Shown here: positions 20,989 to 46,724 of the stretch, piece after piece
Layout: each line of letters begins with the position of its first letter
How positions within the stretch are numbered: the stretch's first letter is position 1
NCBI RefSeq assembly: GCF_016026235.1
Contig: NZ_CP065613.1
DNA from: Escherichia coli
Lineage (GTDB): Bacteria > Pseudomonadota > Gammaproteobacteria > Enterobacterales > Enterobacteriaceae
DNA: 64,000 nt
Strand: one strand, 5' to 3'
The notes under the pieces: generated by a model
What the model was told of the DNA's origin: nothing
Seen by the model: only the letters and a program-made list of their open reading frames with translations
Database searches by the model: none
Made by a program: the position numbers and the translations under genes

Positions 20989-22203
20989 ATGAAATTTGAA
21001 CGCCATCATGAAATATTGAAACGACTCAGTAAATTCGGTTCTGTAAAAGTATCCGATCTGTCCAATAGCCTCAATGTAACGAAAGAAACTATTCGTTCAG
21101 ATCTTAATGAACTTGCCAGGCTTGGCTATCTGACTCGATGTCATGGCGGTGCTTTTATCGTCCTAGACTCGCTTGATACTATTGCGAAAAATGAAATCGC
21201 TTATGCGCTTGAAAATTATGATACAGCCCAGGGAATAAAAAAAGGCCACTCAACTATGAAAAGTCAAGTATGCGTTATTGGTTCGTTTAATGTTGATATC
21301 ATCAGTTATTTGCCGAGGCTTCCCACTATCGGAGAATCGCTTCTGGCAAGTAATTTTATATTTTCACCGGGGGGAAAAGGCTGTAACCAGGCGCTGGCAG
21401 CAAGCTTTGCCGATACTGATGTTTATTTCATAACAAAAGTAGGTACAGATCACTTTAGTGATTATGCGATCAACTTTATGAATTCGTCTAAGATTTATAA
21501 AAGTATAATTTATCAAACGAAAGAAACGCAAACCGGAACTGCCACGATCCTTGTTAATGAAGGTACTGGCGATAATGTTATTGCGATCTATCCCGGTGCC
21601 AACATGACAATGTCGTCCGATGAAATAACTATTCAGAAAGAAGCGATTATTAATTCTGATGTCATACTTCTGCAGCTCGAAACAAATTATACCGCTCTGC
21701 AACAAGCGATCACATTGGCGCAAAAAAACAGTATCCCGGTCATTATTAACCCGGCACCCTATAATGATATCGTCAACGAACTTATTCAGGATGTTGATTA
21801 TATCACCCCCAATGAAACAGAAGCTGGTTTACTGTCCGGCATAGACGTACACGATCTTGAATCAGCTAAACGAGCTGCAGAAGCTATCCACAATAAAGGG
21901 GTAAAAAACACGGTTATCACGCTCGGTAGCAAGGGCTCGCTCGCATTTGATGGCAAAAAATTCATTCATTCGCCAGCGTTTCCAGCGGTCGTTAAAAATA
22001 CGGCAGGAGCCGGGGATGCGTTTAACGGCTCTCTGGCATCAGGACTTGCGAAAGGAAAATCACTGGAATCAGCACTGTGTTATGCCAGCGCCTTTGCATC
22101 CCTAGCGGTGGAGACAAGCAATGCTTCCGACATGCCTGAACATGAATCTGTGATACATCGAATTCAGAGTATACATTATCAGCAAACTATTTTTACGCAT
22201 TAA
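20989..22203 (+). CDS. Fusion protein: N-terminal DeoR-type HTH domain plus PfkB/ribokinase-family carbohydrate kinase
   Basis: Single 404-codon ORF. Residues 1-60 look like a DeoR HTH (VKVSDLSNSLNVTKETIRSDLNELARLGYLTR). The remainder carries both PfkB signatures (GGKGCNQA and AGAGDAFNG). Confidence 0.7.
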   Translation: MKFERHHEILKRLSKFGSVKVSDLSNSLNVTKETIRSDLNELARLGYLTRCHGGAFIVLDSLDTIAKNEIAYALENYDTAQGIKKGHSTMKSQVCVIGSFNVDIISYLPRLPTIGESLLASNFIFSPGGKGCNQALAASFADTDVYFITKVGTDHFSDYAINFMNSSKIYKSIIYQTKETQTGTATILVNEGTGDNVIAIYPGANMTMSSDEITIQKEAIINSDVILLQLETNYTALQQAITLAQKNSIPVIINPAPYNDIVNELIQDVDYITPNETEAGLLSGIDVHDLESAKRAAEAIHNKGVKNTVITLGSKGSLAFDGKKFIHSPAFPAVVKNTAGAGDAFNGSLASGLAKGKSLESALCYASAFASLAVETSNASDMPEHESVIHRIQSIHYQQTIFTH

Positions 22204-22216
22204 GAAGGGACAGAGA

Positions 22217-22975
22217 ATGAATAACACCAAAAAATCACTAAAAGTGCTCTTTATTGGGGAATCCTGGCATATTCATATGATTCATTCAAAAGGATATGAC
22301 AGTTTTACCTCAAGTAAATATGAAGAAGGTGCGACCTGGTTACTCCAGTGTCTGAAAAATAGTCAGGTAGATGTCACCTATATGCCAGCACATACGGTAC
22401 AAATTGCCTTCCCTGAAGATGTGGCACAGTTAGAACAATATGATGCCATCGTTATTAGTGATATTGGTAGTAATACTTTCCTGCTACAAAATGATACTTT
22501 TTATCAGCTTCGCATAAAACCAAACGCTCTCGAACTGATTAAAGAATATGTGAATAACGGTGGTGGGTTATTGATGATTGGCGGCTATCTCTCATTCATG
22601 GGAATTGAAGCAAAAGCCAATTATAAAAATACAGTTCTGGCTGATGTGCTCCCGGTTACGATGTTAGATGGTGACGATCGTGTCGAAAAACCAGAGGGTG
22701 TTATTGCACAGCCATCACAACCTGAACATCCAGTTATTAAAGGGTTCTCTGAATATCCTTTTTTCCTAGGTTATAACCGGGCGATCGCTAAAGAAAATGC
22801 TGAGGTGGTATTAACAATAAACAACGCTCCATTACTGGTCTTTGGTAACTATCACAACGGGAAAATAGCCTGCTTTATGAGTGACTGTTCACCGCACTGG
22901 GGTACACAGCAGTTTATGTCCTGGCCGTTCTATACCGCGTTGTGGGTAAATATACTGACTCATATTGCAAGATAA
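22217..22975 (+). CDS. Hypothetical protein (possible class-I glutamine-amidotransferase-like / ThuA-like fold)
   Basis: 252-aa ORF 14 bp downstream of the kinase gene. Fold assignment comes only from the overall pattern (VLFIGESWH..., NGGGLLMIGGY) and is weak. Confidence 0.35.
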   Translation: MNNTKKSLKVLFIGESWHIHMIHSKGYDSFTSSKYEEGATWLLQCLKNSQVDVTYMPAHTVQIAFPEDVAQLEQYDAIVISDIGSNTFLLQNDTFYQLRIKPNALELIKEYVNNGGGLLMIGGYLSFMGIEAKANYKNTVLADVLPVTMLDGDDRVEKPEGVIAQPSQPEHPVIKGFSEYPFFLGYNRAIAKENAEVVLTINNAPLLVFGNYHNGKIACFMSDCSPHWGTQQFMSWPFYTALWVNILTHIAR

Positions 22976-23031
22976 TAATAATAATGGGGTAACTCCAGTT
23001 ACTCCATTTACTATAATAGAAGGATTGATGT

Positions 23032-23997
23032 ATGAAAAAGAATAAGTACTCAACTCCCTTATGGATGCTTGCCACGATTCTTGCGGGTATGCTCTCCCCT
23101 ATGCAATCAGCGGTGAATGGTCAATTAGGTCACTGGTTACAGGATGGTAATGCATGCGCAGTTATCTCCTTTGCCAGTGGTTTAGTCGTGATGTTTTTTA
23201 TTATTATGGCGCGAAAAGAAACCCGGCAACAATTTGCGGCAATTCCTTCTCTGATTAAAAACCGAAAAGTTCCTCTCTGGAACTGGTTTGCCGGTCTCTG
23301 TGGAGCGATGGTGGTATTTTCTGAAGGCGCATCAGCCAGCGCACTCGGGGTCGCAACGTTTCAAACCGCACTGATCTCCGCGCTATTGCTGTCTGGTTTA
23401 CTTTGCGATCGCTTTGGTATCGGTGTCGACGAGAAAAAATACTTTACCCCTTATCGCATCATCGGTGCATTATTTGCGGTTATTGCTACGATTTTTGTTG
23501 TGTCACCTCAGTGGCATTCTACCTCTTTCATCTTACTTGCCATTCTTCCGTTCTTAGCTGGTTTGCTTGCAGGATGGCAGCCCGCTGGAAATGCAAAAGT
23601 AGCTGAAGCTACGGGATCCATGCTGGTTTCAATCACCTAGAATTTCATCGTTGGATTTTGTGTTTTAGGCACAGCGCTAGCTATTCGTGTCGCATTAGGG
23701 CACGTCACTGTTCAATTACCAGATGTCTGGTGGATGTATCTTGGCGGCCCGCTTGGACTAATGTCTATCGGTTTAATGGCCATTTTGGTCAGAGGTCTGG
23801 GGTTACTGATGCTGGGGGTTGCTTCAACGGCGGGCCAGTTACTGGGATCAGTATTGATTGACGTATTAATTCCATCGCTGGGCAATAGCGTTTATCTGGT
23901 CACGATCATCGGAACACTGTTTGCACTGGTCGGTGCAATTGTTACCACTATTCCGGAATACAGAACCTCGAAAACAATGAAGAAAATGGAGGTATAA
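23032..23997 (+). pseudogene. DMT-superfamily (tandem DUF606 / YdcZ-like) inner-membrane transporter interrupted by an in-frame amber codon
   Basis: ORFs 23032-23640 and 23734-23997 are in the same frame. The intervening codons read on as membrane-protein sequence (...NFIVGFCVLGTALAIRVALGHVTVQLPDVWW-MYLGGPLGLMSIGL...) once TAG at 23638-23640 is read through. Confidence 0.55.
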
Positions 23998-23999
23998 TC

Positions 24000-25034
24000 A
24001 TGAAAGATTATCTACAAACTGTGACGGGCCCCGTCGCCCGTGAAGATATGGGGCTAACACTTCCTCATGAACATCTGTTCAACGATCTTTCCTCTGTTGT
24101 GGATGCTCCTTGCTATCCTTTTTCACAACGGCTTGTTGATAAAAAAGTCACGGCAGAAATCCAGTGGGCATTAAAACACGATCCTTATTGCTGCGCTGAT
24201 AATATGGACCGCAAACCTATTGAAGATGTGATCTTCGAAATTAATAACTTTATCTCGCTCGGTGGTCGCACCATTGTTGATGCCACAGGGTCTGAGTCTA
24301 TCGGACGAGATGCGCAGGCATTACGAGAAGTCGCATTAAAAACAGGTCTGAATATTGTTGCTTCCTCCGGTCCCTACCTGGAAAAATTTGAAAGCCAGAG
24401 AATTCATAAAACGGTTGATGAACTGGCGACAACGATCGATAAAGAATTGAATCAAGGGATTGGCGATACGGATATTCGTGCCGGAATGATCGGTGAAATA
24501 GGTGTTTCACCGACATTTACCGAAGCCGAGCATAACAGCTTGCGGGCTGCCTCGCTGGCACAGATTAACAATCCTCATGTGGCGATGAATATTCACATGC
24601 CGGGCTGGCTTCGTCGCGGTGATGAAGTACTCGACATTGTGTTAGGTGAAATGGGCGTCTCGCCAAATAAAGTCTCTCTCGCACACTCGGATCCGTCAGG
24701 AAAAGACGTGGCGTATCAGCGGAAAATGCTTGATAGAGGTGTCTGGCTGGAATTCGACATGATTGGCCTAGACATTACCTTCCCGAAAGAGGGAATAGCG
24801 CCAGGGGTGCAGGAGACTGCCGATGCCGTCGCTCATCTCATTGAGTTGGGATACGCCGATCAGCTTGTTCTCAGCCACGATGTCTTCCTTAAACAAATGT
24901 GGGCTAAAAATGGCGGTAATGGCTGGGGATTTGTTCCAGATGTTTTTCTGGCCTATCTGGCGGAGCGCGGCGTCGATAAAACGATCCTCAAAAAACTCTG
25001 TATCGATAATCCCGGACGATTATTGACCGCATAA
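24000..25034 (+). CDS. Phosphotriesterase-family (PTE/Php-like) metal-dependent hydrolase
   Basis: 344-aa product with the N-terminal metal-binding motif TLPHEHL and overall amidohydrolase/PTE layout. Confidence 0.75.
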   Translation: MKDYLQTVTGPVAREDMGLTLPHEHLFNDLSSVVDAPCYPFSQRLVDKKVTAEIQWALKHDPYCCADNMDRKPIEDVIFEINNFISLGGRTIVDATGSESIGRDAQALREVALKTGLNIVASSGPYLEKFESQRIHKTVDELATTIDKELNQGIGDTDIRAGMIGEIGVSPTFTEAEHNSLRAASLAQINNPHVAMNIHMPGWLRRGDEVLDIVLGEMGVSPNKVSLAHSDPSGKDVAYQRKMLDRGVWLEFDMIGLDITFPKEGIAPGVQETADAVAHLIELGYADQLVLSHDVFLKQMWAKNGGNGWGFVPDVFLAYLAERGVDKTILKKLCIDNPGRLLTA

Positions 25035-31289: not shown

Positions 31290-31694
31290 CTATCCTTCCA
31301 GTTGCCCTCCTGCAGCCCCCCTCTCCCTGCTGTATACCCCGGTACCACAACGCGGGCAGCACTTTTCCCCCTCATAATCTTCGTCACACATCACACAAAA
31401 CCACTTTCTCACCTTCACCGTATAATCCGGAACCGTCATGCCCTGCAGATGCAAACGACGGGCCTCTTTCTCTGCCGGGTCAAGCCAGGTGCATCGCAGC
31501 AGGATTTTCGCAGCAACAGTCATCTGGTCATGTTCAAACCACGGCGGTTGTCCGTCATTGCCCCGCTTAAGTGTTAACGGACAACCACAGGACACACAGC
31601 ACAAAACGTCCTGTCGGTTGTTCTTCGCGGCTTCTTTCGCCGTAACAAAATGGCCTTTGCTGTCATTCGCCATATAGCAGTTCAGAATTCGCAT
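31290..31694 (-). CDS. Hypothetical Cys-rich (putative zinc-binding) protein, paralogue A
   Basis: 134-aa ORF with CxxC...PWFEH...WFCxxC...CCPRC arrangement; paralogous to the ORF at 32852-33256. Confidence 0.5.
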   Translation of the reverse strand: MRILNCYMANDSKGHFVTAKEAAKNNRQDVLCCVSCGCPLTLKRGNDGQPPWFEHDQMTVAAKILLRCTWLDPAEKEARRLHLQGMTVPDYTVKVRKWFCVMCDEDYEGEKCCPRCGTGVYSRERGAAGGQLEG

Positions 31695-32851: not shown

Positions 32852-33256
32852 TTACGTGCAAGACAGTTGCTGAGCTGTCCGGGGAAGACTGAATCCTCCG
32901 GTCTGGCAGTGTGTGCAGTACCACTCCCCATAATAATCGTGGTGACATTGTCTGCAGTGCCAGCTGGCTTTACGCACCACGGGTAAGGCATCCGGTACGA
33001 ATTGCTGCAGACGTTTAATCAACTGTATTTCTCTGCGCTCCGGCCTGACATAAGGGCACTGTTGACCGTGCTCTGTCAGCCTGTCGTCAGTGTGTTCAAA
33101 CCAAGGAAGTTCAGTGTCGTATTGCGGATGGTATCTGAGTGCACTGCCACACAAGTGGCAGGTGTAGTTAGCATAAGGTGCGGCCTGTGCTGTACGGGCG
33201 CCCGTCAGACGTCCGTTGCCATCAAGAGCGATAAAGGATTTTGCGTACATAGTCAT
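32852..33256 (-). CDS. Hypothetical Cys-rich (putative zinc-binding) protein, paralogue B
   Basis: 134-aa ORF with CHLC...PWFEH...WHCRQC...CTHC; same cysteine architecture as paralogue A. Confidence 0.5.
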   Translation of the reverse strand: MTMYAKSFIALDGNGRLTGARTAQAAPYANYTCHLCGSALRYHPQYDTELPWFEHTDDRLTEHGQQCPYVRPERREIQLIKRLQQFVPDALPVVRKASWHCRQCHHDYYGEWYCTHCQTGGFSLPRTAQQLSCT

Positions 33257-33415: not shown

Positions 33416-33985
33416 TCAGCCACGACTGCAGCCAAAGTTGCGCTCACCGGTGCAGTGAGCTTTGGTATGCTCCTTCGCCAGATAGTCAGCACGTTCCAGC
33501 ACTTGCTGAAAGCCGGTGTCATCATTACGCGCCAGCCACACCGCCGGCCAGGCCGGAAAATGCACCAGCGTGGCATGGCACCCGACATCCACTCCCAGGG
33601 CACTGCACCACGCCTGTTTAATCATCCCGGCCAGTGATCCCGGAGCGCGGTAATCACCGGCACGACACCAGGTATCCCGGTTGACCAGCAGCATCAGGTG
33701 ATAGTGTTTTTTACCTTTGCACTCCCCAAACTCCCGGGCCCAGACGTAATGCAGGGTTGTGGGATGCACGCGTTTACCTTCCCGATGCTTACGTTTCTGG
33801 TAAGCGTCGATTCGGGCTTTCAGGGCATTGATGAAGCGGGATATCACAGCTGCGTCCGTTGCTGCCGGTACATCCGGGAGACGCAGGTCAACCCGCAATG
33901 CCGTCAGGCGGGGATGAACATTCAGTGCGTGCCGCACCGTCTCACGAATACGTTGCTGCCAGAAGGGGTTGTATTTGTAGGTCAT
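33416..33985 (-). CDS. YagK/YfjJ-family (inovirus Gp2-like) prophage protein
   Basis: Product starting MTYKYNPFWQQRIRETV... resembles the CP4-type YagK/YfjJ family; assigned from memory only. Confidence 0.55.
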   Translation of the reverse strand: MTYKYNPFWQQRIRETVRHALNVHPRLTALRVDLRLPDVPAATDAAVISRFINALKARIDAYQKRKHREGKRVHPTTLHYVWAREFGECKGKKHYHLMLLVNRDTWCRAGDYRAPGSLAGMIKQAWCSALGVDVGCHATLVHFPAWPAVWLARNDDTGFQQVLERADYLAKEHTKAHCTGERNFGCSRG

Positions 33986-34183
33986 GGTTAAATCTCCGTA
34001 TGGTTCATACGGAATAGCCACGTCGTAAAAAATGCGCAGAGTCCCTGAAGTGACCTCCGGCAGGACACTGTCTCAGGCACTCTGTGATAACCCGAACGGT
34101 CGTCTCCGGACTGACGGTTGAATTTTCAGCGTTGTTTTTTAATGTAAAAAACCGGTTACGGGTAAGGCTGTGAGGAGGGAGTT

Positions 34184-34384
34184 ATGGTGATACGCAAAAA
34201 GAAGTGCAGGGACTGTGGAAACGCGATTACTCATAATACAGTGTGTTGCCCGTATTGTGGTTCTGTCGACCCCTTCGGCTACTACCGGAATACAGACCGT
34301 ATCGTTACCATACTGCTGGCGCTGATTATTGTGGTCCTGCTGACTACTGTCAGCGTCAGTGTGTGTATACTGTGTAGCTGGTGA
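34184..34384 (+). CDS. Small zinc-ribbon protein with a C-terminal transmembrane helix
   Basis: 66-aa ORF preceded by a strong Shine-Dalgarno (gaggagggag). CRDCGN...CCPYCGS zinc-ribbon followed by a hydrophobic segment IVTILLALIIVVLLTTVSVSVCIL. Confidence 0.4.
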   Translation: MVIRKKKCRDCGNAITHNTVCCPYCGSVDPFGYYRNTDRIVTILLALIIVVLLTTVSVSVCILCSW

Positions 34385-35614
34385 GATAACGGTTCATGTA
34401 TCCCCTGAGCTGACAGTGTACCGTGTATATTAAGCGTAACCGACAGGTTCTCCTTCATACCATATTAAATTTTTCCAGGTATTGCCGCTGCCTTATTTCG
34501 TCCCATACAGGAAAACTCATCTGGGTTTCTGACAAATACGCGAAACTCACAGCCCCTCAATATCAACCACACGTTGTAAGCCGGTAATACCTGAAAATCA
34601 GCCTATTACCGCCCACGCCTCCGGCACCATTCCCTTTTGATTTCGAATTCTTTGTTGTCGCTATACCGCTTAATGTTCCCGGTCCTCCGGTGCAGATAAC
34701 ACCGGAGTCATCGTAGCGCTGCTTCAATATTCAGGTGACATATTTCCAGACAGAAGCCGGCGCGCGATCGTAAAGTTTGTTCATTGTCAGTTCTGCCAGC
34801 CGGTTGTCAACGGCAGAGTTAAAGGCTTCCAGCTCCGCAAGGGTAAGTTTATAACGCGTGTGGGAATTCACTTTTCCCGCGTCTCCTGACGTATTACGGG
34901 CTGCCACTTACCTGGTGTCCCGCAATACAGCCTTAGTGTTCCGTTATCGGGGATCCGGACGCACCGCAACAACCGGGGAAGTATTTCTGGTTTAGAGCAG
35001 TGTCAAGAGGGATTTCTCAGCCCCTCACTCACCGGCTCAGTCTCAAGGCAGGAGAATTAATACGCTCAGTTCATGTCTTATACAGGAATGGGCACAGGGG
35101 GAGCTAGCGTGTCACTGCTGATTTTACGCATCAGCGTTCATGTATCTGCACTCTGATACATGAACGATTCACAGCGCTCTGTTACCGGAGAGATTTACTC
35201 TCTTAGCTTACTCTGGCAAATCCTTTACGTTACTCTCTGATGACTTCTTATATTTATAATACCAATCAGACAGCCTTATCCCATCGGTGATATCAGTCTC
35301 CTCCTCGCCAGGAACGGGCTGACTCACTGTAACCACCTCCGAAAACAACTCTGCAATTATCAGAACGCCTGCTTCTCTCCCTGTCCTCACGAAAACTATC
35401 CCCTCTTTATCGCGCGTGCGTGCGGAAGCATCTTTTCGCAACAACCACCCAGTATACCGGTACGGCTCAGCCACCGCAACCTCCCCGTTTATCTCCTGGC
35501 GGTCACATTCCCGATTATTTTTTACGTTTCTCCCCGGTTGTTATGCCGGTGAAGGTGGCGCGCTGTTTTCATGACCACACCGGCTGGTTTAACAACATCC
35601 GGAGGAACATTCTC

Positions 35615-35821
35615 ATGGCTACCCCAGTTTCACTGATGGATGACCAGATGGTCGACATGGCATTTATCACTCAACTGACCGGCCTGACAGATAAGTGGTT
35701 TTACAGGCTCATCAGGGATGGGGCCTTTCCGGCTCCCATCAAGCTGGGCCGCAGCTCCCGCTGGCTGAAAAGTGAAGTGGAAGCCTGGCTGCAGGCGCGT
35801 ATTGCACAGCCCCGCCCGTAA
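35615..35821 (+). CDS. alpA: AlpA-family phage/prophage transcriptional regulator
   Basis: 68-aa product with the AlpA pattern ...ITQLTGLTDKWFYRLIRDGAFPAPIKLGRSSRWLKSEVEAWL... Confidence 0.7.
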   Translation: MATPVSLMDDQMVDMAFITQLTGLTDKWFYRLIRDGAFPAPIKLGRSSRWLKSEVEAWLQARIAQPRP

Positions 35822-35909
35822 TTTCTGACCGTTATCCGTTCACCCGCAGCAGACGTAATCCCCGGCCTGCCGGCGGCATTCTGCTGCCTGTTATATCCCC
35901 GTGAGGAAT

Positions 35910-36518
35910 ATGAAAATGAAACAACAGTATCAGACCCGCTACGAATGGCTCCACGAAAGCTACCAGAAATGGCTGACCGGCTTCACCCGGCACGCCGTAT
36001 CCTGGGGCGTGTGTCATCCGAATATCTACTACTTCCATAATCTGACGCCCGGTTGGGTGTCATTCAATGGTGAAAAACCGGAGATTGCCATCGTACCCCA
36101 GAGCCTGCACCGGCTGATTTATGGCCCTGACAAACGGGCCACGCCGCCCCTGGATGATGATCTGATCGTGAATTTATGCACCAGTGAACATCTGCTGGTT
36201 CATCATCCGATGCTGGAAGGCATTCTCCTGTCTGAATGTGAACGTCTGAGGCAGCGTTCTCTGGCAAATAAACTGATCAGCCTCTTCCGTCAGTTTGGTG
36301 GCACGGAGTTGCGCCTCAAACTGGTCTGGCTTTGCTGGCTTGATTTAATGACCGGAAACAGCCTTGAAGACTGGAAAGAGAACCTGAAACGGAAATCAGA
36401 AAAAGAGCTGGAGGAATGGATCATCAACCGTCAGAGGCAGAGCGCAGCACTGACGGATCTGATGGATCAGTACGTGCTCCTGGCATACCGCACAACGGTT
36501 GACGATAACCGCAACTGA
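35910..36518 (+). CDS. Hypothetical protein (island-encoded)
   Basis: About 200-aa ORF directly downstream of alpA with a Shine-Dalgarno (gagga) upstream of tandem ATGs; no recognisable domain. Confidence 0.5.
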   Translation: MKMKQQYQTRYEWLHESYQKWLTGFTRHAVSWGVCHPNIYYFHNLTPGWVSFNGEKPEIAIVPQSLHRLIYGPDKRATPPLDDDLIVNLCTSEHLLVHHPMLEGILLSECERLRQRSLANKLISLFRQFGGTELRLKLVWLCWLDLMTGNSLEDWKENLKRKSEKELEEWIINRQRQSAALTDLMDQYVLLAYRTTVDDNRN

Positions 36519-37718
36519 TGCCGGTTGCTTCCGGAAGGTGTGACAAAATACGGAAATGATGATGCTCCCGGCCCCGCATGCTCACCTGCAGAGCGTGTTC
36601 GTCGTCATCATACTGAGCCATGACGGGCGTCTTAAGGGCATCCTGTCATTGCTGAGCAGGCAACACCACCAGAGGAGCCACGGACAGGGATGTTCTTTAC
36701 AGCCCGATGCACGCCAGGTTCTCAGCAGACTGAATGTGCAGGTGCGGTTATTCACCAGAAATGGCATGCTGCGGTACATACCCATCCTGGTGACAATATG
36801 TACGTGGCGACAGCGATCCCGGCACTGTGGAAGAGACTCACTCAGCCTGCAGGATATTCTTTCCGGCATCCGGGAATGTCCGCCTGAATGCAAACAGGAT
36901 GATATTTGAATCCGTAATACTGTTCTTTCATCATAAATAATTTATGCAGATACAGTTAACCGTCACAGTAGCAGGTTTGTTTTCCCGGGAAATAATATCC
37001 GTCAGACTGATGCCGGAACATATCTGAAACACGTTATGATGTTTTGTTATCAGAAATGTTGTATATTCTTATCCGTGACGGCAGTTTAATGCCCTCTGGT
37101 ATCACCTGATAATGCATATCCTGCGATGATTCGTTATATTTACGGGACACGTCTCTTTTCATTGTGCTCCTTTTCAGACTTCATTTTCCATAAGTGTTCC
37201 CCGGCATAAAGGAGGTACCTTTCTGGCGTTTATAACTCTCTTTATCGGTGACGCCGGTAATACAGGGAATACCACACCGACAAACGAGGTATTAACGGAC
37301 GATATTTCAGTGTCCATAATTTTGCTGTCCGGTTAAATAACGTCAGTCTGCTGCCCTCTGACTGTAATCATCAAAGCCGGAATGCATACCGGGTTACAAC
37401 GTAAAAAAAGTGATGCTGGCCCCCGGTGCAGCTGGCGGGCGAAACATGTTTACCTTTCAATACCCCCTGTCTGCAGTCTCCACTCTTCCATCCTCTTAAG
37501 CTACGTCGGCCACATGAGTGCACTTCCATGATAACAGGTATTCCTGTCAGCATAACGAAGCCGGTTACCTTCCCTTCCTCCTGCATTTCCTATCAGAATG
37601 ACTGTACAGCGCGCAGATTGCCTTTTTATTGACCACCTTAATATACCATTATAAACTTCTTTTTATCATGTTATTATCACCTTATTATGTTTAATTTTTA
37701 AGCAGCCAGAGAAAGAGG

Positions 37719-38636
37719 ATGGTTCAGAAAATTTTGTCGGATAAGGTTATGAATGAAAGAACAAATGCGTATTACTCTTATTATCTTGGAGGGCGTAATA
37801 TCTCCGTACTGCCCCTTAATGTTTATGATCCCCCGGAACGTTTTATCGCTTACATAAAAAAAAACAGAGAAAATCTGAACATCACACTTTCAGATTTTGA
37901 ACTTGAACAAATAATTTCTGGTATGCGTCTGAAGGCCCTGGCCTTCCTGGTCCCCCTGGAAAAAATATCCTGGATCGCAGGCAGTGAACGCGCATGCTTA
38001 TTTTCCTGGTATCTGTTGATGCAGTTTATCCAGAATAACAGGGCAAAAATAAGCGCAGACTTGCTTCAAAAGAATAAACTGTATCTTAAAGAAGAGTATC
38101 TGGAAGGGAATGCCTTCCCGTCGGACTCATCGACACAGTTCAGACAAATACTCAGAGTTCTCGATATTCTTTCTGATAAGAATTTGCGGGATGAGTGGAT
38201 AATCCAGACCAAAGACAGATGGATACGGGCATTTAAATCAAAGAGTCCTTTCAGTTACCTCCTCCCGGAGAACGAACATGAATGCATATGGACATGGAAT
38301 TATTTGAAGGGAAAAAATATTGCACTGGAAAAACTGGCCAGTTTTCCTGATTCTGCTGATATTTACCACGCAATTCACCTTTCATTTGACATATGGGTTA
38401 CCTGTACACTCACCTCACCTGACGATATAAAAAATTTCAGAAACAGTTTCAATAAGGCCAAGGCGCAGCGCAAGTACAAAAAAATGCAGGAAGATAAAGT
38501 CAATGTACAGTTTTTTCTTGACGCAGAAACCAGGGCGCAGCTCAAAGAATTATCGAGGGTCAGAAGACTCAGTACCGGCGAAATGCTGCATGACCTGATT
38601 GTTGAAGAGTATAAAAGGTACCGACATTCCAGATAA
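37719..38636 (+). CDS. Hypothetical protein with a C-terminal ribbon-helix-helix-like motif
   Basis: 305-aa ORF, visibly AT-rich. C-terminus VNVQFFLDAETRAQLKELSRVRRLSTGEMLHDLIVEEY resembles an RHH (CopG/Arc-type) DNA-binding module. Confidence 0.5.
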   Translation: MVQKILSDKVMNERTNAYYSYYLGGRNISVLPLNVYDPPERFIAYIKKNRENLNITLSDFELEQIISGMRLKALAFLVPLEKISWIAGSERACLFSWYLLMQFIQNNRAKISADLLQKNKLYLKEEYLEGNAFPSDSSTQFRQILRVLDILSDKNLRDEWIIQTKDRWIRAFKSKSPFSYLLPENEHECIWTWNYLKGKNIALEKLASFPDSADIYHAIHLSFDIWVTCTLTSPDDIKNFRNSFNKAKAQRKYKKMQEDKVNVQFFLDAETRAQLKELSRVRRLSTGEMLHDLIVEEYKRYRHSR

Positions 38637-38905
38637 TTTCAGACATATATTATCTCCGTGAGTCCCCCGCCACCTTTCCGGTGTGCGGGGTTTTTGTCTT
38701 TTTTCACCGGGAATACATGTATGAATCCGTCTGATGCCATTGAGGCAATTGAAAAACCGCTCTCCTCCCTGCCTTACTCACTTTCCCGTCACATCCTGGA
38801 ACATCTGCGCAAACTCACCAGTCACGAACCCGTGATTGGCATTATGGGTAAAAGCGGGGCCGGTAAATCCTCACTCTGTAATGCACTGTTTCAGGGGGAG
38901 GTCAC

Positions 38906-40199
38906 CTGAGGGATCCCCAGAAAATTTAGTAAACCATTATCATATTGGTATACCGTTGCTGTAGAACTTTCAGCCCTGCGTCAAGTGACAGTGTGTTTAG
39001 TATGAGTGGAGAATGTCGAATCACATTCTCCGCCAGTTTTAATAACGAGATGACTCGCCTGTGCTTCACTGTATTTGCCTGATATTTATGATGTATCCCT
39101 TTGTTTTCCAGGCTGAAACCGCTTAACCACATAATGATACTGGCTAATGTTGCGATCAGACTCAATACCGTGACCCGCCCGGATGAATGACTGGCACCAA
39201 ACCGTAATCCAAATCCCCAGCGAGGATTTTTTTCATCCCTGAAATTTTGCTCAATTTGCATTCTACGGCTGTATAATTTCATTACCTGTTTTGGCGAGAA
39301 CTCAGTACTGTTTGTGAAAATAAACCATGGTGATTTCCCGGCAGTACGAGCTTTAGCCGTCACCGATGGTCTGGTTGCTCTTTCCTTCGAGCGTTTAAAT
39401 CAACGACCTTTAGGCTTACTTTTATAAAGATAAAAATGCCCTTCATGTTGTGCATTTTTATCTCGACCCAGCAGGCCTTCACCTAAATAAATTGCTGTCG
39501 TTGATGCTTTTGTGCCTGAGTCCGACACCTTTTCCCAGCCATTACCAACATTGTAATAATGATTGCCCAGTACCCGGCAAATATAGGTCCAGCCACGGGA
39601 GCGGAGCTGTTGGAACCATCGCCCCTGAAAACCGGCATCTGTAATAACAATGACATCAGTCCCGGGGGAAAAGCACTCAGCAAGCGATTCCAGAAAACGC
39701 TCATGTACATCTGCATTCGCTGTCTGTGATGATGGAACGACACAACTCATCAACGGTAAAGAACGCCCGTCACATGCCAGGCTTGCCCGCAAAAGCTGAA
39801 AACGAGAGGCATGATAAGCACTCCAGTCAATGAGTATCACAACACGAGACATTCCCCGCGTAATCTTTTGGGTAATTCGCTGAAAAATGGTGGAAACCTC
39901 ATTTTGCAAATGTCGATTCCCCAACAGTCGATCCACCCGCTTTATTTTGTTTTTAACTGATGCCGTACCGGTTAAATGACGCCCGATACTGGTAAGTGTG
40001 AGGGAAGCGCCATTTATTACAGCATTAGTTGCGTCAATCAGTGATTTTTGACGGTAAAGATGCAAAGGGGCCAGTATGTTGTTAAGGAAATTTTGGCATA
40101 ATGAACGTGCAGGCATAGTGGTGATCTCCTTGAAATTGTTAGCACAATCAATTAGATCACATCTCACTATGCCTGTCTTGTTTTCTGGGGATTCCTCAG
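38906..40199 (-). mobile_element. IS10-like IS4-family insertion sequence inside yeeP
   Basis: Terminal inverted repeats CTGAGGGATCCCCAGAAAA (38906-38924) and CTGAGGAATCCCCAGAAAA (reverse complement of 40181-40199). Flanking direct repeat GGGAGGTCAC at 38896-38905 and 40200-40209. Confidence 0.7.
38926..40116 (-). pseudogene. IS4-family (IS10-like) DDE transposase, in two frames
   Basis: Segments resemble the IS10 transposase (NKIKRVDRLLGNRHL; VIVITDAGFQGRWF; YSRRMQIEQNFRDEKNPRWGFGLRF) but are split between ORFs 39400-40116 and 38926-39363. Confidence 0.7.
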
Positions 40200-41009
40200 G
40201 GGAGGTCACCCCGGTCAGTGATGTTCACGCCGGCACCCGGGAAGTGCGGCGCTTCCGTCTGAGTGGCCACGGTCACAGCATGATTATCACTGACCTGCCC
40301 GGGGTGGGCGAGAGCCGGGACAGGGATGCAGAGTATGAAGCCCTGTACCGTGACATTCTGCCTGAACTTGACCTGGTACTGTGGCTGATTAAAGCCGATG
40401 ACCGTGCCCTGTCTGTGGATGAGTATTTCTGGCGACACATCCTGCACCGGGGACATCAGCAGGTGCTGTTTGTGGTGACGCAGGCCGACAAAACGGAGCC
40501 CTGCCATGAATGGGATATGGCCGGCATTCAGCCTTCTCCCGCACAGGCACAGAACATTCGTGAGAAAACAGATGCGGTATTCCGGCTGTTCCGGCCCGTA
40601 CATCCGGTTGTGGCCGTATCGGCCTGCACCGGCTGGGAACTGGATACGCTGGTCAGTGCGCTCATGACAGCGCTTCCCGACCATGCCGCCAGTCCCCTGA
40701 TGACCCGCCTGCAGGACGAGCTGCGCACGGAATCTGTCCGGTCTCAGGCCCGTGAACAGTTTACCGGTGCGGTGGACCGGATATTTGACACGGCGGAGAG
40801 CGTCTGTATTGCCTCTGTTGCACGCACGGTTCTGCGTGCCGTCCGTGACTCGGTGGTCTCTGTTGCCCGCGCTGTATGGAACTGGATTTTCTTCTGAACA
40901 GTCTGCCAGGGGAAATGCCTGATTACATTGCGTTAACCAACTGAAAACATGATACACCCCCCTCATATCCACCTCTTTCTCTTGCGTGACTGCCTTGCTG
41001 TTAATAGAA

Positions 41010-41060: not shown

Positions 41061-43251
41061 GGTTAATGGCCTGCGAAAAGGCAGCTGAATCTCTTCATCA
41101 TGCAGAACGGAATTGCACACAACGGACTGATACTTCTCTGGCGGATGAGAGAGGGGAAGCATTTATGTCCGGGAAAAACCACTTTATCTGACCATGCTGT
41201 TTTGTACCTGCCGGTATCCACATTTGTGGGTACCGGCTTTTTTATTCACCCTCTGTAAGGAAAAGCTGATGAAACGACATCTGAACACCAGCTACAGGCT
41301 GGTATGGAATCACATTACGGGCACCCTGGTGGTGGCTTCCGAACTGGCGCGCTCACGGGGAAAACGCACCGGTGTGGCGGTTGCGCTGTCTCTTGCTGCT
41401 GTCACGTCAGTCCCGGTACTGGCTGCTGACACGGTCGTACAGGCGGGAGAAACCGTGAGCGGCGGAACACTGACAAATCATGACAACCAGATTGTCTTCG
41501 GTACGGCCAACGGAATGACCATCAGTACCGGTCTGGAGTATGGGCCGGATAACGAGGCCAATACCGGCGGACAATGGATACAAAATGGCGGTATCGCCAA
41601 CAACACTACTGTCACCGGTGGTGGTCTTCAGAGAGTGAATGCTGGAGGAAGCGTTTCAGACACGGTTATCAGTGCCGGAGGCGGACAGAGCCTTCAGGGG
41701 CAGGCAGTGAACACCACTCTGAACGGCGGTGAGCAGTGGGTACATGAAGGCGGGATTGCAACGGTTACCGTCATTAATGAGAAGGGCTGGCAGGCCGTCA
41801 AATCCGGCGCAATGGCAACCGACACGGTTGTGAATACCGGCGCGGAAGGGGGACCGGATGCAGAAAATGGTGATACCGGGCAGACCGTCTACGGAGATGC
41901 CGTACGCACCACCATCAATAAAAATGGTCGTCAGATTGTGGCTGCTGAAGGAACGGCAAATACCACTGTGGTTTATGCCGGCGGCGACCAGACTGTACAT
42001 GGTCACGCACTGGATACCACGCTGAATGGGGGGTACCAGTATGTGCACAACGGCGGTACGGCGTCTGGCACTGTTGTAAACAGTGACGGCTGGCAGATTA
42101 TCAAGGAAGGTGGTCTGGCGGATTTCACCACCGTTAACCAGAAAGGCAAACTGCAGGTGAACGCCGGTGGTACCGCCACACATGTCACCCTGAAACAGGG
42201 TGGAGCACTGGTTACCAGTACTGCGGCAACGGTTCTTGGCAGCAACCGTTTGGGCAATTTCACGGTGGAAAACGGTAAGGCTGACGGCGTTGTTCTGGAG
42301 TCCGGCGGTCGCCTAGATGTACTGGAAGGCCATTCAGCGCAGAAAACACGGGTGGATGACGGCGGAACCCTGGCAGTGTCTGCCGGTGGTAAGGCAACAG
42401 GTGTCACCATGACATCCGGTGGTGCCCTGATTGCAGACAGTGGTGCCACTGTTGAGGGGACCAATGCCAGCGGTAAGTTCAGTATTGATGGCATATCCGG
42501 TCAGGCCAGCGGCCTGCTGCTGGAAAATGGCGGCAGCTTTACGGTTAATGCCGGGGGACAGGCCAGCAACACCACTGTCGGACATCGTGGAACACTGATG
42601 CTGGCTGCCGGGGGAAGTCTGAGTGGCAGAACACAGCTCAGTAAAGGCGCCAGCATGGTACTGAATGGTGATGTGGTCAGTACCGGCGATATTGTTAACG
42701 CAGGGGAGATTTACTTTGACAATCAGACAACACCGGATGCCGTACTGAGCCGTGCTGTTGCAAAAGGCAACGCCCCGGTAACGTTCCATAAACTGACAAC
42801 CAGTAACCTCACCGGTCAGGGTGGCACCATCAATATGCGTGTTCGCCTTGATGGCAGCAATGCCTCTGACCAGCTGGTGATTAATGGTGGTCAGGCAACC
42901 GGCAAAACCTGGCTTGCGTTTACAAATGTCGGAAACAGCAACCTCGGGGTGGCAACCACCGGACAGGGTATCCGGGTTGTGGATGCACAGAATGGCGCCA
43001 CCACAGAAGAAGGTGCGTTTGCCCTGAGTCGCCCGCTTCAGGCCGGCGCCTTTAACTACACCCTGAACCGTGACAGCGATGAAGACTGGTACCTGCGCAG
43101 TGAAAATGCTTATCGTGCTGAAGTCCCCCTGTATACATCCATGTTGACACAGGCAATGGACTATGATGCGTATTACCGTGAAGGAGATCGGTGAGTAACA
43201 TCGATGGAGATCGGTTCGTGTCACTTTCACAGAACCGTTTTTAAATTACCT

Positions 43252-44001
43252 TCACTGATCTCCTTCGGTCAACGGAGATTGTATTTTCCGCATTGATTCT
43301 CCTTTAAGTTCAATCTTGATACTGCCATGAACCAGTCGATCTAGGATGGCATCCGCATGTGTGGAGTCTCCGATCATTTTGTACCAGTTTTCCACCGGCA
43401 ACTGGCTCACTACGATGATTGAGCCTCGTTGGTACATCAGATCCACTATTTCCAGCAGGTCGCTACGCTGTTCTGATGAGAGAGGTTCCAGCCCCCAGTC
43501 ATCCAGAAGCAGCAGATCGCTATTATTCAGCCTAGTCAAAAGTTTGCTGTATCTTCCATCAGCATGCCCCTGATAGCACTGTTCCATCAGCGCTTTAAGG
43601 CGATAATAGTAGACCTTGTATCCCTGTCGGCAGGCATTATGACCAAGTGCACATGCCAGGAACGTTTTACCGCTGCCGGTGGCCCCGGTCAGTAAAATAT
43701 TTTGTTTCAGGGTTAACCAGTTTCCCTGACTGAGTGAACGGATGAGGGCCCTGTCCAGCCCTCTATTGTTACGATAATCCAGCTTTGATAACTCAGCATT
43801 AAGTCTGAACCGTGCATGTTTGATCAGACGCTCTGCCTTCCTGTTTTCACGGCAGGTTAGTTCTTCTGCTGTCAGTAATGACAGGCGTTCTTCGAAGCCC
43901 AGCTCCTGGTATGTGCCCGGCTGAGCAAGTTGCTTTTTAAGCGCATCACGGAAGCCGGTGAGTTTAAGTGCGGTCAGTTGTTCGTAAAGATGATTCATCA
44001 T
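43252..44001 (-). CDS. istB: IS21-family helper ATPase IstB
   Basis: Walker A GATGSGKT; 249 aa. Confidence 0.8.
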   Translation of the reverse strand: MMNHLYEQLTALKLTGFRDALKKQLAQPGTYQELGFEERLSLLTAEELTCRENRKAERLIKHARFRLNAELSKLDYRNNRGLDRALIRSLSQGNWLTLKQNILLTGATGSGKTFLACALGHNACRQGYKVYYYRLKALMEQCYQGHADGRYSKLLTRLNNSDLLLLDDWGLEPLSSEQRSDLLEIVDLMYQRGSIIVVSQLPVENWYKMIGDSTHADAILDRLVHGSIKIELKGESMRKIQSPLTEGDQ

Positions 44002-44012
44002 TGGATCCCGTA

Positions 44013-45533
44013 TCAGTGGTAATACTCACTGCCGCGTACGTTTTCGTGTTCCATCGTGGATAACAGATCTGGTTTTGGATCCTGAACAGGTTGTTTATCC
44101 AGACCTTTTTCCAGGATCGATTTAATACCTGACAGACGCCATACCTTTGTTTTCAGAGCTCTTGCACATGCTGCATTAAGTCTGGCTTTACTGTATTTTT
44201 TATGAAGGTTCAGGAGTCCAAGGCAGAAGCGATAGCTTTGTTCCGGATGTGGACGAGAGTTCAGTATATGAAGCACATAACTATGAGTTTCACTGCCTAT
44301 GTGCCCCGCCCATTCCAGAAGACGCTCTGGCGTCCAGGTGGCATGCTGTCGATGAGCTTCAGGCATGTGCTCGTTGCGGGTACTGTAGCCATAAGTACGC
44401 TTGCGCGGGTGCACAGCAACCTCCTGCCCCTGATTGAAGAGTCTTACCAGTTCTCCGGAGATCCATGCTTCCAGTTGCTGGCCTAACAGCGAACATGGAA
44501 CCGAGTAGTAATGTTTGTCGATTTCCACGTGGTAATCGGCATGAACTCTGACTTTCTTCACCAGGGTGTAACTGTAACTGGCTTCAGGAAGAGGCTTCAG
44601 TGCGGGTTTATCAAGCTGGATGAAGAGTTCTGCACGTGAATAACCCAACTTCTGCATTATTTTGTTATTCAGTCTTTCCAGCAACTCCCGAATGCGCTGA
44701 TTAAGCGATGCAAGGCTGTAGAAGATCTCATGCCTGATTCGGGCCATGATCCAGCGTTCAACAACCTGAACGCCAACTTCAGCTTTGGCTTTATCTTTCG
44801 GTTTACGTGGCCGCGCAGGCAAAACTGCGACATTATAATGCTCAAGCATCTGCTGGTAGGTAGGGTTAACGTCAGGATCATACTTACATGCCCTGGATGT
44901 GGCGCTTTTCAGATTGTCCGGAACAACAAGTTCAGGAACGCCACCCAACCACTGGAAGCAGCGAACATGACTCATCACCCAGTCTTCAAGCTGCTGAGAC
45001 CAGGTGGCCTCTGCCCATGTGTAACTTGATGCCCCGAGAACAGCTACGATGACCTGAGCAGTTCTTATTTCTCCGGTCTCAGGGTCGGTAACGCCAACGG
45101 TAGGTCCACAGTAATCAACGAAAAGTTTTTCGCCAGCTTTATGTACCTGACGCATTGATGGTGAAGTGGTTTTGAGCCATTCACGGTACATCCGGCAGTA
45201 ATGGTTATAGCTGTAAAAACCGCCTGGATTACGCTCACAGTATTCTTCCCAGAGTAGCTGCAGCGTCACGCATTTATTACGCAGTTCCCAGTGTACTGTA
45301 GCCCAGTCAGGCAGAGAGTGCTTCTTCATCTTAACCTGGGTCTGAAGGAACGCATGTTTTAGTTTTGTATCATCCCATCCTGTAGGTAAGGGCCACTGCT
45401 TTATGCCAAGTTGAGCCGCCCGATTAGCATATCTGGATACAACGGAAGGGGAGATTGCAAGACTACGACCAATTTGTCGATGGCTGAGTCCAACACCGTA
45501 TTTAAGCCTAAGAATTTCTTTAAGTTTTCTCAT
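44013..45533 (-). CDS. istA: IS21-family transposase IstA
   Basis: HTH plus DDE domain; about 50% similar to the IstA of copy 1. Confidence 0.8.
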   Translation of the reverse strand: MRKLKEILRLKYGVGLSHRQIGRSLAISPSVVSRYANRAAQLGIKQWPLPTGWDDTKLKHAFLQTQVKMKKHSLPDWATVHWELRNKCVTLQLLWEEYCERNPGGFYSYNHYCRMYREWLKTTSPSMRQVHKAGEKLFVDYCGPTVGVTDPETGEIRTAQVIVAVLGASSYTWAEATWSQQLEDWVMSHVRCFQWLGGVPELVVPDNLKSATSRACKYDPDVNPTYQQMLEHYNVAVLPARPRKPKDKAKAEVGVQVVERWIMARIRHEIFYSLASLNQRIRELLERLNNKIMQKLGYSRAELFIQLDKPALKPLPEASYSYTLVKKVRVHADYHVEIDKHYYSVPCSLLGQQLEAWISGELVRLFNQGQEVAVHPRKRTYGYSTRNEHMPEAHRQHATWTPERLLEWAGHIGSETHSYVLHILNSRPHPEQSYRFCLGLLNLHKKYSKARLNAACARALKTKVWRLSGIKSILEKGLDKQPVQDPKPDLLSTMEHENVRGSEYYH

Positions 45534-46724
45534 AGAAATTGGAACTGTTGGCATAGGTATCCTTTACCGGAATGGCAAAAGATACAGATCAACACACCTG
45601 TGAAGTTCCAATAACATTGATGGAGATCACTGAATAACAAAATGAGTCAAAAGTGATCTCCATCGATGTTATTCAGCGATCTGTTCAAATGTTATTACCC
45701 GATCTCGATGGAAGTTATTGAGTGATCTCCTTTCATGAAAATACGCACTATGACCGGATTCTGGCAGGCTCCCGCAGCCATCAGACCGGTGTAAACGGTG
45801 AAAATAACAGCGTCCGTCTCAGCATTCAGGGCGGTCATCTCGGTCACGATAACAACGGCGGTATTGCCCGTGGAGCCACGCCGGAAAGCAGCGGCAGCTA
45901 TGGCTTCGTCCGTCTGGAGGGTGACCTGCTGAGAACAGAGGTTGCCGGTATGTCTCTGACGACAGGGGTGTATGGTGCCGCAGGCCATTCTTCCGTTGAT
46001 GTTAAGGATGATGACGGTTCCCGCGCCGGCACGGTCCGGGATGATGCCGGCAGCCTGGGCGGATACCTGAATCTGACACACACGTCCTCCGGCCTGTGGG
46101 CTGACATTGTGGCACAGGGAACCCGCCACAGCATGAAAGCGTCATCGGACAATAACGACTTCCGCGCCCGGGGCTGGGGCTGGCTGGGCTCACTGGAAAC
46201 CGGTCTGCCCTTCAGTATCACTGACAACCTGATGCTGGAGCCACAACTGCAGTACACCTGGCAGGGGCTCTCCCTGGATGACGGCCAGGATAACGCCGGT
46301 TATGTGAAGTTCGGGCATGGCAGTACACAACATGTGCGTGCCGGTTTCCGTCTGGGCAGCCACAACGATATGACCTTTGGTGAAGGCACCTCATCCCGTG
46401 ACACCCTGCGCGACAGTACAAAACACGGTGTGAGTGAACTGCCTGTGAACTGGTGGGTACAGCCTTCTGTTATCCGCACTTTCAGCTCCCGGGGTGACAT
46501 GAGCATGGGTACAGCCGCCGCCGGCAGTAACATGACGTTCTCACCGTCCCGGAATGGCACGTCACTGGACCTGCAGGCCGGACTGGAAGCCCGTGTCCGG
46601 GAAAATATCACCCTGGGCGTTCAGGCCGGTTATGCCCACAGCGTCAGCGGCAGCAGCGCTGAAGGTTATAACGGTCAGGCCACGCTGAATGTGACTTTCT
46701 GATAATCAGGTCACTCTCCTTCAG

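Follow-up and report, generated by a model that had tools for sequence, protein, structure and literature searches.

A protein family restricted to Enterobacterales, encoded behind alpA and a candidate leader RNA in the backbone of CP4-44/CP4-57-type islands

The Pseudomonas islands I23, I44, and I55, which are integrated at the transfer-messenger RNA (tmRNA) gene, encode a tyrosine integrase, an AlpA protein next to an inovirus Gp2-like gene, and RadC. Their cargo is variable and rich in phage defense, they have no obvious transfer machinery, and their transduction by jumbo phage was shown; AlpA, the Gp2-like protein, and RadC are treated as their likely core functions (PMC12595487, PNAS 2025). 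In Pseudomonas aeruginosa, a protein named AlpA allows RNA polymerase to pass an intrinsic terminator downstream of the AlpA loading site (PMC7969949, PMC9371919), and other alpA-bearing mobilizable elements carry immune systems (bioRxiv 10.64898/2026.01.12.698999). Here we analyze an open reading frame (ORF) that directly follows alpA in an island at the CP4-44 site of Escherichia coli, within a window of 64,000 nucleotides (nt) of contig NZ_CP065613.1 (assembly GCF_016026235.1). Positions and strands given below refer to this window unless another locus is named.

The islands that carry the ORF share the overall logic of I23, I44, and I55, but no member of the ORF family was found outside the Enterobacterales, so that we regard the ORF as a lineage-specific addition to a shared AlpA/Gp2/RadC module. 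They also resemble P4-like satellites, PICIs, and PIMEs (bioRxiv 10.64898/2026.01.12.698999), in that alpA heads a regulatory or replication module and the elements carry defense hotspots. Those elements differ in having primase or replicase genes after alpA, as well as packaging or transfer genes, whereas the ORF-type island has neither. In our view, the ORF is part of an already known type of element, the alpA-led module of P4-integrase-type islands, in which it is a partner without precedent.

Among the islands of E. coli K-12, CP4-57 has a core like that of the ORF islands (GTPase, DUF932, antirestriction, RadC, and a CbtA-type toxin-antitoxin pair). In this island, yfjI takes the position of the ORF, directly after alpA and beside a YagK/YfjJ-family gene (alpA-yfjI-yfjJ). 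This agrees with the statement of an initial annotation of the window, made from the sequence alone, that the ORF sits where related elements keep replication or regulatory genes. However, YfjI (DUF3987) is a protein of 469 amino acids (aa), whereas the ORF encodes 200 aa without a Pfam domain, and the hairpin that precedes the ORF is absent from CP4-57 (searched as locus L002). K-12 itself has lost the part of CP4-44 that holds alpA and the ORF, and its CP4-6 lacks both genes; a hidden Markov model (HMM) search of the six-frame ORFs of K-12 CP4-57, CP4-44, and CP4-6 found no copy of the family. Because K-12 has no copy, the ORF never received a y-name, and because K-12 lost the gene, it escaped study. 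The unit consists of the following features.

35615-35821, + strand: alpA, 68 aa (Pfam Phage_AlpA, E 4.9e-9; HTH_17, E 1.5e-7)
35846-35887, + strand: two-tier stem-loop between alpA and the ORF, in the leader of the latter (35843-35899 as matched by the covariance model)
35903-35908, + strand: GAGGAA, Shine-Dalgarno sequence of the ORF, read directly from the sequence
35916-36518, + strand: the ORF, encoding a 200-aa protein of the Enterobacterales-restricted "Aec62" family

The ORF is widespread. Megablast recovered it at a coverage of at least 80% in 3346 of 5426 complete E. coli genomes (about 62%), with a median of two and a maximum of six copies, nearly all of them chromosomal; alpA and the ORF were covered as a single block in 3337 genomes, compared with the 3346 for the ORF alone. 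Homologues with 54 to 65% protein identity occur in Salmonella, Yersinia, Klebsiella, Enterobacter, Serratia, Hafnia, Pantoea, Cronobacter, and Citrobacter, and more distant full-length members have 23 to 46% identity. A species-level scan, with one genome for each of 100,044 species, yielded 44 loci with the family, from about 20 genera, all of them Enterobacterales. The reading frame and its length (174 to 208 aa) are maintained throughout these genera. When six loci from different genera were compared, the proportion of nonsynonymous differences (pN) was far below that of synonymous differences (pS) in every pair, and dN/dS was 0.09 to 0.16 for pairs with unsaturated dS. Because nonsynonymous differences fall so far below synonymous ones, conservation acts on the encoded protein. 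Judged by this substitution pattern, the ORF is a real protein-coding gene under purifying selection and not a chance frame. The initial annotation had proposed a real ORF with a good ribosome-binding site right after alpA, and both the Shine-Dalgarno sequence and the conservation bear this out.

The reading frame on the + strand spans 35901 (GTG) to 36518 and contains in-frame ATG codons at 35910 and 35916. The initial annotation gave the gene as 35910-36518; the ORF and its end stand, and the start most likely moves to the ATG at 35916, which gives the 200-aa protein. We prefer this codon because homologues from other genera all start at the aligned "MK," because some genera have the upstream ATG in a different frame (e.g., in locus L017), and because the conserved Shine-Dalgarno spacing fits 35916 only. 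GAGGAA lies 7 to 9 nt 5' of 35916 versus 1 to 3 nt 5' of 35910; its counterpart in other genera is AAGGAA, and the distance to the start codon is kept across genera. The product called by NCBI PGAP (WP_000813455.1) also has 200 aa and is 100% identical to the window protein.

The protein has an isoelectric point of 6.7. The family is marked by two motifs, G-[IV]-L-[LI]-S-E-C-x-R-L (residues 102 to 111) and L-L-C-W (139 to 141). Numbered from the start at 35916, the invariant residues are Y16, Q17, G31, L43, P61, L64, G102, L104, S106, E107, C108, R110, L111, L139, C140, W141, L144, and Y186. An acidic or coiled C terminus had been proposed for this protein. The peptide quoted in support is present (residues 151 to 175), but the segment is of mixed charge, with seven K/R and seven D/E among residues 148 to 176, and the predicted structure shows short packed helices there and no extended coiled coil.

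AlphaFold, given close homologues only, returned a model with a predicted local distance difference test score (pLDDT) of 68; after distant members were added, the pLDDT was 87.2 and the predicted template modeling score was 0.86. This rise suggests a coevolution signal of a real fold. The model begins with a long N-terminal helix (residues 8 to 29), a short helix (35 to 41), and a beta-hairpin (43 to 48 and 56 to 61), followed by a less confident linker and then seven helices. In the C-terminal region, short helices (151 to 159, 162 to 173, and 177 to 193) are packed into a compact domain with a pLDDT near 90. The model with a pLDDT of 87 has no structural neighbor in the PDB or among viral predicted structures.

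We could not connect the family to any other. The protein had no match in Pfam, NCBIfam, or PHROGs (Pfam was empty even at E ≤ 10), and none among known defense protein families at E ≤ 1 (PADLOC-DB v2). When 33 family members were compared with Pfam at E ≤ 10, only scattered single matches were obtained, none consistent and none to DUF3987. Among PDB sequences, the single protein and the family profile matched only antithrombin and ICT1, at chance level (E > 0.2). Of 1.84 billion representative proteins searched exhaustively with an HMM, 125 matched, all within the family and mostly fragments. When distant members were included in a second profile search, 250 clusters were obtained, and none of them had a Pfam domain or an informative name. 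Nor did hhalign relate the family profile to any of 24 other island proteins, a set that included YfjI, YfjH, YfjJ, YagJ/K/L/M/N, the product of a 305-aa gene of the core (p305), zinc-ribbon proteins, and AlpA; the probability was at most 3% for every one and 0.1% for YfjI. The protein lacks the small winged-helix or HTH_17 domain (60 to 100 aa) that marks excisionase-, AlpA-, or MerR-type proteins, and profile scans found no toxin or antitoxin domain. These results leave standing the earlier verdict that the ORF matches no recognizable family, with no clear match to a characterized one and with empty profile and PDB searches. By these comparisons, the family is unrelated to any described protein family or solved fold.

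The sole database name of the family is "Aec62" (the UniRef name of one cluster member), which is only the number of an ORF in AGI-3, the selC island of avian pathogenic E. coli BEN2908; Aec62 belongs to the same protein family. Aec62 is also listed among the genes of a tRNA-associated island in Shiga toxin-producing E. coli, without function, domain, or structure (PMC6174562). A functional study of the gene was not found in the literature. Thousands of genomes already list the ORF as a "hypothetical protein," so that the gene as such was known. New are the definition and limits of the family, its lack of any relative or solved structural neighbor, its strict coupling to alpA and to a covarying leader RNA outside Rfam, and its place at the boundary of defense cargo.

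The coupling to alpA is close. The ORF is missing from the decayed islands of K-12 but present in related islands across species; in about 40 of the 44 loci of other species, alpA is its immediate 5' neighbor in the same orientation, with a gap of 65 to 117 nt in the loci measured and 94 nt in the window. Loci without a directly adjacent alpA are accounted for by contig ends, by two cases with a zinc-ribbon gene in between, and by Providencia locus L048, in which no alpA was detected. Among solved structures, the window AlpA comes closest to 8c3t, an "AlpA family phage regulatory protein," and to the excisionase TorI (1z4h).

The gap between the two same-strand genes has no sigma-70-like site but does have a hairpin. 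In the window, this hairpin has an outer stem GCAGCAGA/TCTGCTGC and an inner stem CCGG/CCGG, followed by CUGUUAUAU and then by the ribosome-binding site; its minimum free energy is -21.2 kcal/mol (z -2.67), and a simple scan flags it as terminator-like. Single-sequence folds from many genera show the same architecture, with outer stems GCAGCAGA/UCUGCUGC, CAGCCAG/CUGGCUG, GCCGU/ACGGC, and GACAGGCAG/CUGCCUGUC. A covariance model (R1), built from 11 sequences, locates the element in 33 loci (e.g., L005:9923-9983 and L043:9906-9964), always on the sense strand and, in all 33, ending about 20 to 30 nt before the start codon of the homologue. Because it is kept before the ORF in L043 despite the insertion of a zinc-ribbon gene, the hairpin belongs to the ORF and not to the 3' end of alpA.

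In the model-guided alignment, 85% of the cells are paired, versus 34 to 49% when the partners are slid, and 32 cells are changed on both sides, versus 3 to 12. The closing pair of the inner stem occurs as G-C, C-G, A-U, and U-G. G-U cells (52) outnumber A-C cells (17), which points to an RNA of the + strand. The alignment was fitted to the covariance model and thus somewhat favors structure; the independent single-sequence folds agree with it. RNAalifold run on a plain MAFFT alignment predicted nothing, with the 5' arm out of register, which the covariance-model alignment solved. Rfam 15 gave no match at E ≤ 1 for positions 35000-38000. Sequence conservation in the 3' arm of the hairpin and in its flank (GGAGGYUU...GCUGCCUGU) exceeds the needs of pairing, and the tail, UGUCAUUU or, in the window, UGUUAUAU, is U-rich but interrupted (about five U in eight). 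We regard the hairpin as a candidate new cis-regulatory RNA that could act as an attenuator, weak terminator, processing site, or binding site.

The genes around this unit are those of an integrative island, and the following neighbors recur.

31290-31694, - strand: DUF7828 zinc-ribbon paralogue of the next gene, 32% identical (PGAP: zinc-ribbon)
32852-33256, - strand: DUF7828/Zn_ribbon_11 protein (Pfam DUF7828, E 2.7e-31; PGAP: zinc-ribbon)
33416-34021, - strand: YagK/YfjJ-family (inovirus Gp2/REP-like) gene (YagK_YfjJ_C, E 1.5e-47; weak REP_ORF2-G2P match)
37719-38636, + strand: p305, a 305-aa hypothetical gene without a Pfam family, which opens the conserved core

The window represents the CP4-44 site of E. 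coli, with ldtA and cobT on the left, as in K-12. They are followed by an IS110 element, a metabolic cargo cluster, and insertion sequence (IS) elements; in the middle by the two DUF7828 zinc-ribbon genes and the YagK/YfjJ gene (- strand), alpA and the ORF (+ strand), and a spacer of 1.2 kb; and on the right by p305, a YeeP-type GTPase gene, Ag43, DUF932, antirestriction, RadC, CbeA, and CbtA. E. coli Nissle has the same layout. In other genera, the core (p305, GTPase, DUF932, antirestriction, RadC, CbeA, and CbtA) lies on one side of the module, divergently oriented, and on the other side lie variable cargo and, where the contig is long enough, a P4-type integrase. This cargo ranges over Dnd/Dpt, BREX, Zorya, type I restriction-modification (RM), Dsr1, PD-Lambda-4, fimbriae, and metabolic genes; the loci obtained with distant homologues carry Dnd/Dpt, BREX, type I RM, and a LlaJI-like system. 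When nine large cargo ORFs from nine further loci were compared with PADLOC models, eight matched: Zorya ZacC, type I RM (three times), PD-Lambda-4, Dsr1, PDC-M54, and BrxC. In other genera, then, the slot beside the alpA-ORF-YagK module holds mostly antiphage defense. Loci in which this slot was seen with defense cargo are L018, L020, L024, L029, L039, L040, L044, and L051, at 1 to 8 kb downstream, and L003 to L007 and L010 to L012.

Because the ORF is constant while the cargo changes, it is not cargo but a backbone gene of CP4-44/CP4-57-type integrative islands, and the unit of alpA, structured leader RNA, and ORF stands at the junction of island core and variable cargo. In nearly all loci, a YagK/YfjJ member immediately precedes alpA or follows the ORF, and a DUF7828 zinc-ribbon gene often adjoins the alpA-ORF-YagK module in other genera too, as a fourth member. 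The YagK/YfjJ gene of the window lies outside the putative alpA-ORF operon and is context only. In both the window and Nissle, alpA and the ORF have the opposite orientation to YagK and the zinc-ribbon genes and point toward the island core; in the loci of other genera used for comparison (L005, L014 to L056, and L059), the genes for YagK, AlpA, the ORF protein, and the zinc-ribbon protein are codirectional, reading toward the cargo, in two permuted orders. Because of the E. coli inversion relative to YagK, the strict links of the ORF are to alpA and the hairpin only.

What the protein does can be approached from this setting. Tentatively, we favor the possibility that it is an accessory to steps that AlpA and the YagK-type protein control after induction, either excision control or the replication or processing of excised island DNA; this is an analogy drawn from neighboring genes. 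The ORF would be transcribed from upstream, through the stem-loop, because the gap between hairpin and start codon is about 28 nt and includes no sigma-70-like site. As a weak terminator, attenuator, or processing signal, the stem-loop would probably limit or time expression, and the protein would then be made only when the alpA promoter is strongly active, i.e., when the island is induced. With a compact, mostly helical model, a near-neutral isoelectric point, and no helix-turn-helix, the protein most likely works through protein-protein contacts rather than as a classic DNA-binding regulator. It would assist AlpA, the YagK-type protein, or both after induction, given that the ORF fills the place of YfjI and accompanies AlpA and a Gp2/REP-like protein.

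Several points weigh against this proposal. No experiment, homology, or fold match links the ORF to excision or replication, so that its functional part comes from gene neighborhood alone. Gene order varies by lineage (YagK-AlpA-ORF, AlpA-ORF-YagK, and the E. coli inversion). The position shared with YfjI does not appear to imply a shared function, since hhalign finds no relation between the two proteins. The interrupted U-tract makes terminator activity doubtful, and the hairpin would be at best a weak or conditional terminator. Finally, strong but unrelated hairpins take the leader position in Pantoea (L006) and Edaphovirga (L039), and Providencia loci L036, L037, and L045 yield no match to the covariance model.

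A bolder version, which we consider quite unlikely, would make the hairpin and the ORF protein together a hitherto undescribed switch, peculiar to enterobacterial CP4-type islands, in which AlpA-dependent read-through of the leader would yield a protein of novel fold that sets the island on course for excision, replication, or transfer or links its induction to the expression of the neighboring defense genes. The P. aeruginosa precedent makes such read-through at the hairpin an attractive idea, in that a terminator-like hairpin lies between alpA and the ORF here as well. The systems differ in that the hairpin has a poor U-tract and the window AlpA has no sequence match to the solved P. aeruginosa chains. 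We rejected the window AlpA as a Pseudomonas-type antiterminator because of this missing match and keep the analogy as a lead only. If the switch were real, it would offer a handle on the movement of very common, "immobile-looking" islands.

We also think it unlikely, if somewhat better founded, that the protein is a regulator that binds nucleic acid, possibly its own leader, and either controls the cargo and defense genes or the core genes for p305 and the GTPase, or silences the island. The ORF does stand at a hub between core and cargo, and the cargo into which the unit reads in other genera is mostly defense (the eight of nine ORFs tested). The hairpin element always travels with the ORF, and the excess conservation of its 3' arm and flank is what would be expected of a protein-binding site. 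The protein, however, shows no nucleic-acid-binding signature of any kind, which argues against this reading.

That the ORF encodes an effector against mobile elements or host defenses, which would interfere with a phage or helper, counter defense, or act as a single-gene defense on induction, seems to us rather improbable. Defense systems do lie beside the module, and with antirestriction and RadC genes in its core, the element clearly invests in conflict functions. Genes of this kind typically belong to families that evolve fast, are confined to a lineage, and have no known relatives. Tandem paralogues in one locus (L010) and partial second copies in four others (L030 to L033) would fit as well. 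The PADLOC search was nevertheless without a match, the ORF stays constant across islands of differing cargo, the family is essentially absent from phages, viral contigs, and plasmids, and the purifying selection (dN/dS 0.09 to 0.16) carries no sign of an arms race.

Very unlikely, in our judgment, is an addiction or host-manipulating factor, such as a toxin-like protein or growth modulator that stabilizes the island and is held low by the hairpin. Its expression does appear to be gated tightly by a structured leader, and the ORF is intact within a heavily IS-damaged island. The island already has a CbtA/CbeA toxin-antitoxin pair. The ORF has no antitoxin-sized partner gene at a conserved position and no similarity to known toxin families, and AlpA is not known to be an antitoxin.

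The idea that there is no functional protein at all, with the frame merely carried along with alpA or an RNA or DNA element conserved in its place, could appeal to the lack of function, domain, or experimental expression evidence and to an overlapping antisense ORF (36424-36621) in PGAP, which shows that the region attracts doubtful calls, but it is barely credible and largely refuted by the selection analysis: synonymous sites are saturated, yet amino acid identity is 55 to 65% between genera and 23 to 33% for distant members with invariant motifs, frame and length (174 to 208 aa) are kept in about 20 genera, and the pLDDT rises from 68 to 87 when distant members are added.

Few accessory elements of E. 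coli and its relatives are as common as islands of the CP4-44/CP4-57 type, which, in other genera, hold many antiphage systems; the ORF is one of their most constant backbone genes. The protein and its leader hairpin suggest a new family in Pfam and another in Rfam, respectively. The partnership with alpA and a leader RNA, the lack of relatives, and the place at the boundary of the defense slot are starting points for work on island induction. Should the function turn out to be routine, e.g., that of a structural accessory, the wider impact would be small.

A few further observations concern the family itself. Two metagenome-assembled genomes labeled Clostridiales and Bacillota (L022, JAHAJA010000039.1; L026, JAEWTL010000095.1) hold a complete enterobacterial island module with proteins about 61 to 62% identical to the window protein; these are probably mis-binned contigs. 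Locus L010 (GCA_010619905.1) has two full paralogues behind alpA (7273-7848 and 8001-8525), with 41% and 33% identity to the window protein. The partial copies in L030 to L033 are short and lie just downstream (at about 10658-10956), and whole second modules occur in L021 (13043-13624) and L032 (16677-17099). In one database protein (P0129), the phosphotriesterase of the metabolic cargo cluster is joined to the C-terminal half of the ORF, a fusion that suggests a junction formed by recombination or deletion in some strain.

A phage or plasmid origin of the ORF was rejected, as the family is essentially absent from phages, viral contigs, and plasmids. One of 50,697 phage records and two of 2.9 million viral contigs matched. 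The sole phage record (L060, OR851001.1, "Salmonella phage S.Kent 1-2-1") is an UNVERIFIED contig of 3.6 kb with 3x coverage from a phage preparation; its homologue is most likely host DNA and does not count as evidence of phage carriage.

In the window, the alpA-ORF pair is intact although the island is decayed and IS damaged. The YeeP-type GTPase gene (38658-40972) is cut by an IS4-like element, and the Ag43 autotransporter gene (41194-46702) is split by IS21 (istA/istB, 43252-45554). The metabolic cargo cluster (20989-25034) encodes a DeoR-PfkB kinase fusion, a GATase1-like protein, a YdcZ exporter, and a phosphotriesterase-family protein. The p305 gene adjoins the YeeP-type GTPase gene in most related loci, and its product has weak C-terminal matches to Arc-like (phrog_582, E 0.074) and MatP-like proteins.

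The antisense ORF (36424-36621, - strand; 65 aa, PGAP hypothetical WP_001333284.1) overlaps the 3' end of the ORF by 95 nt and is probably a spurious call, since the region downstream of the ORF is not conserved outside E. coli. The spacer between the ORF and p305 (36519-37718) has several promoter-like sites and no conserved ORF and is presumably a long regulatory region of the core operon; neither the spacer (36530-37718) nor the region 34030-35600 is matched by an ORF from the related loci. Immediately behind the stop codon of the ORF, at 36521-36540 (+ strand), CCGGTTGCTTCCGGAAGG forms a small hairpin that nearly matches the inner hairpin of the Klebsiella-type leader (CCGGTTGCTCCGGAGG). 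This second hairpin is confined to the E. coli arrangement and may be a terminator or the relic of a second leader.

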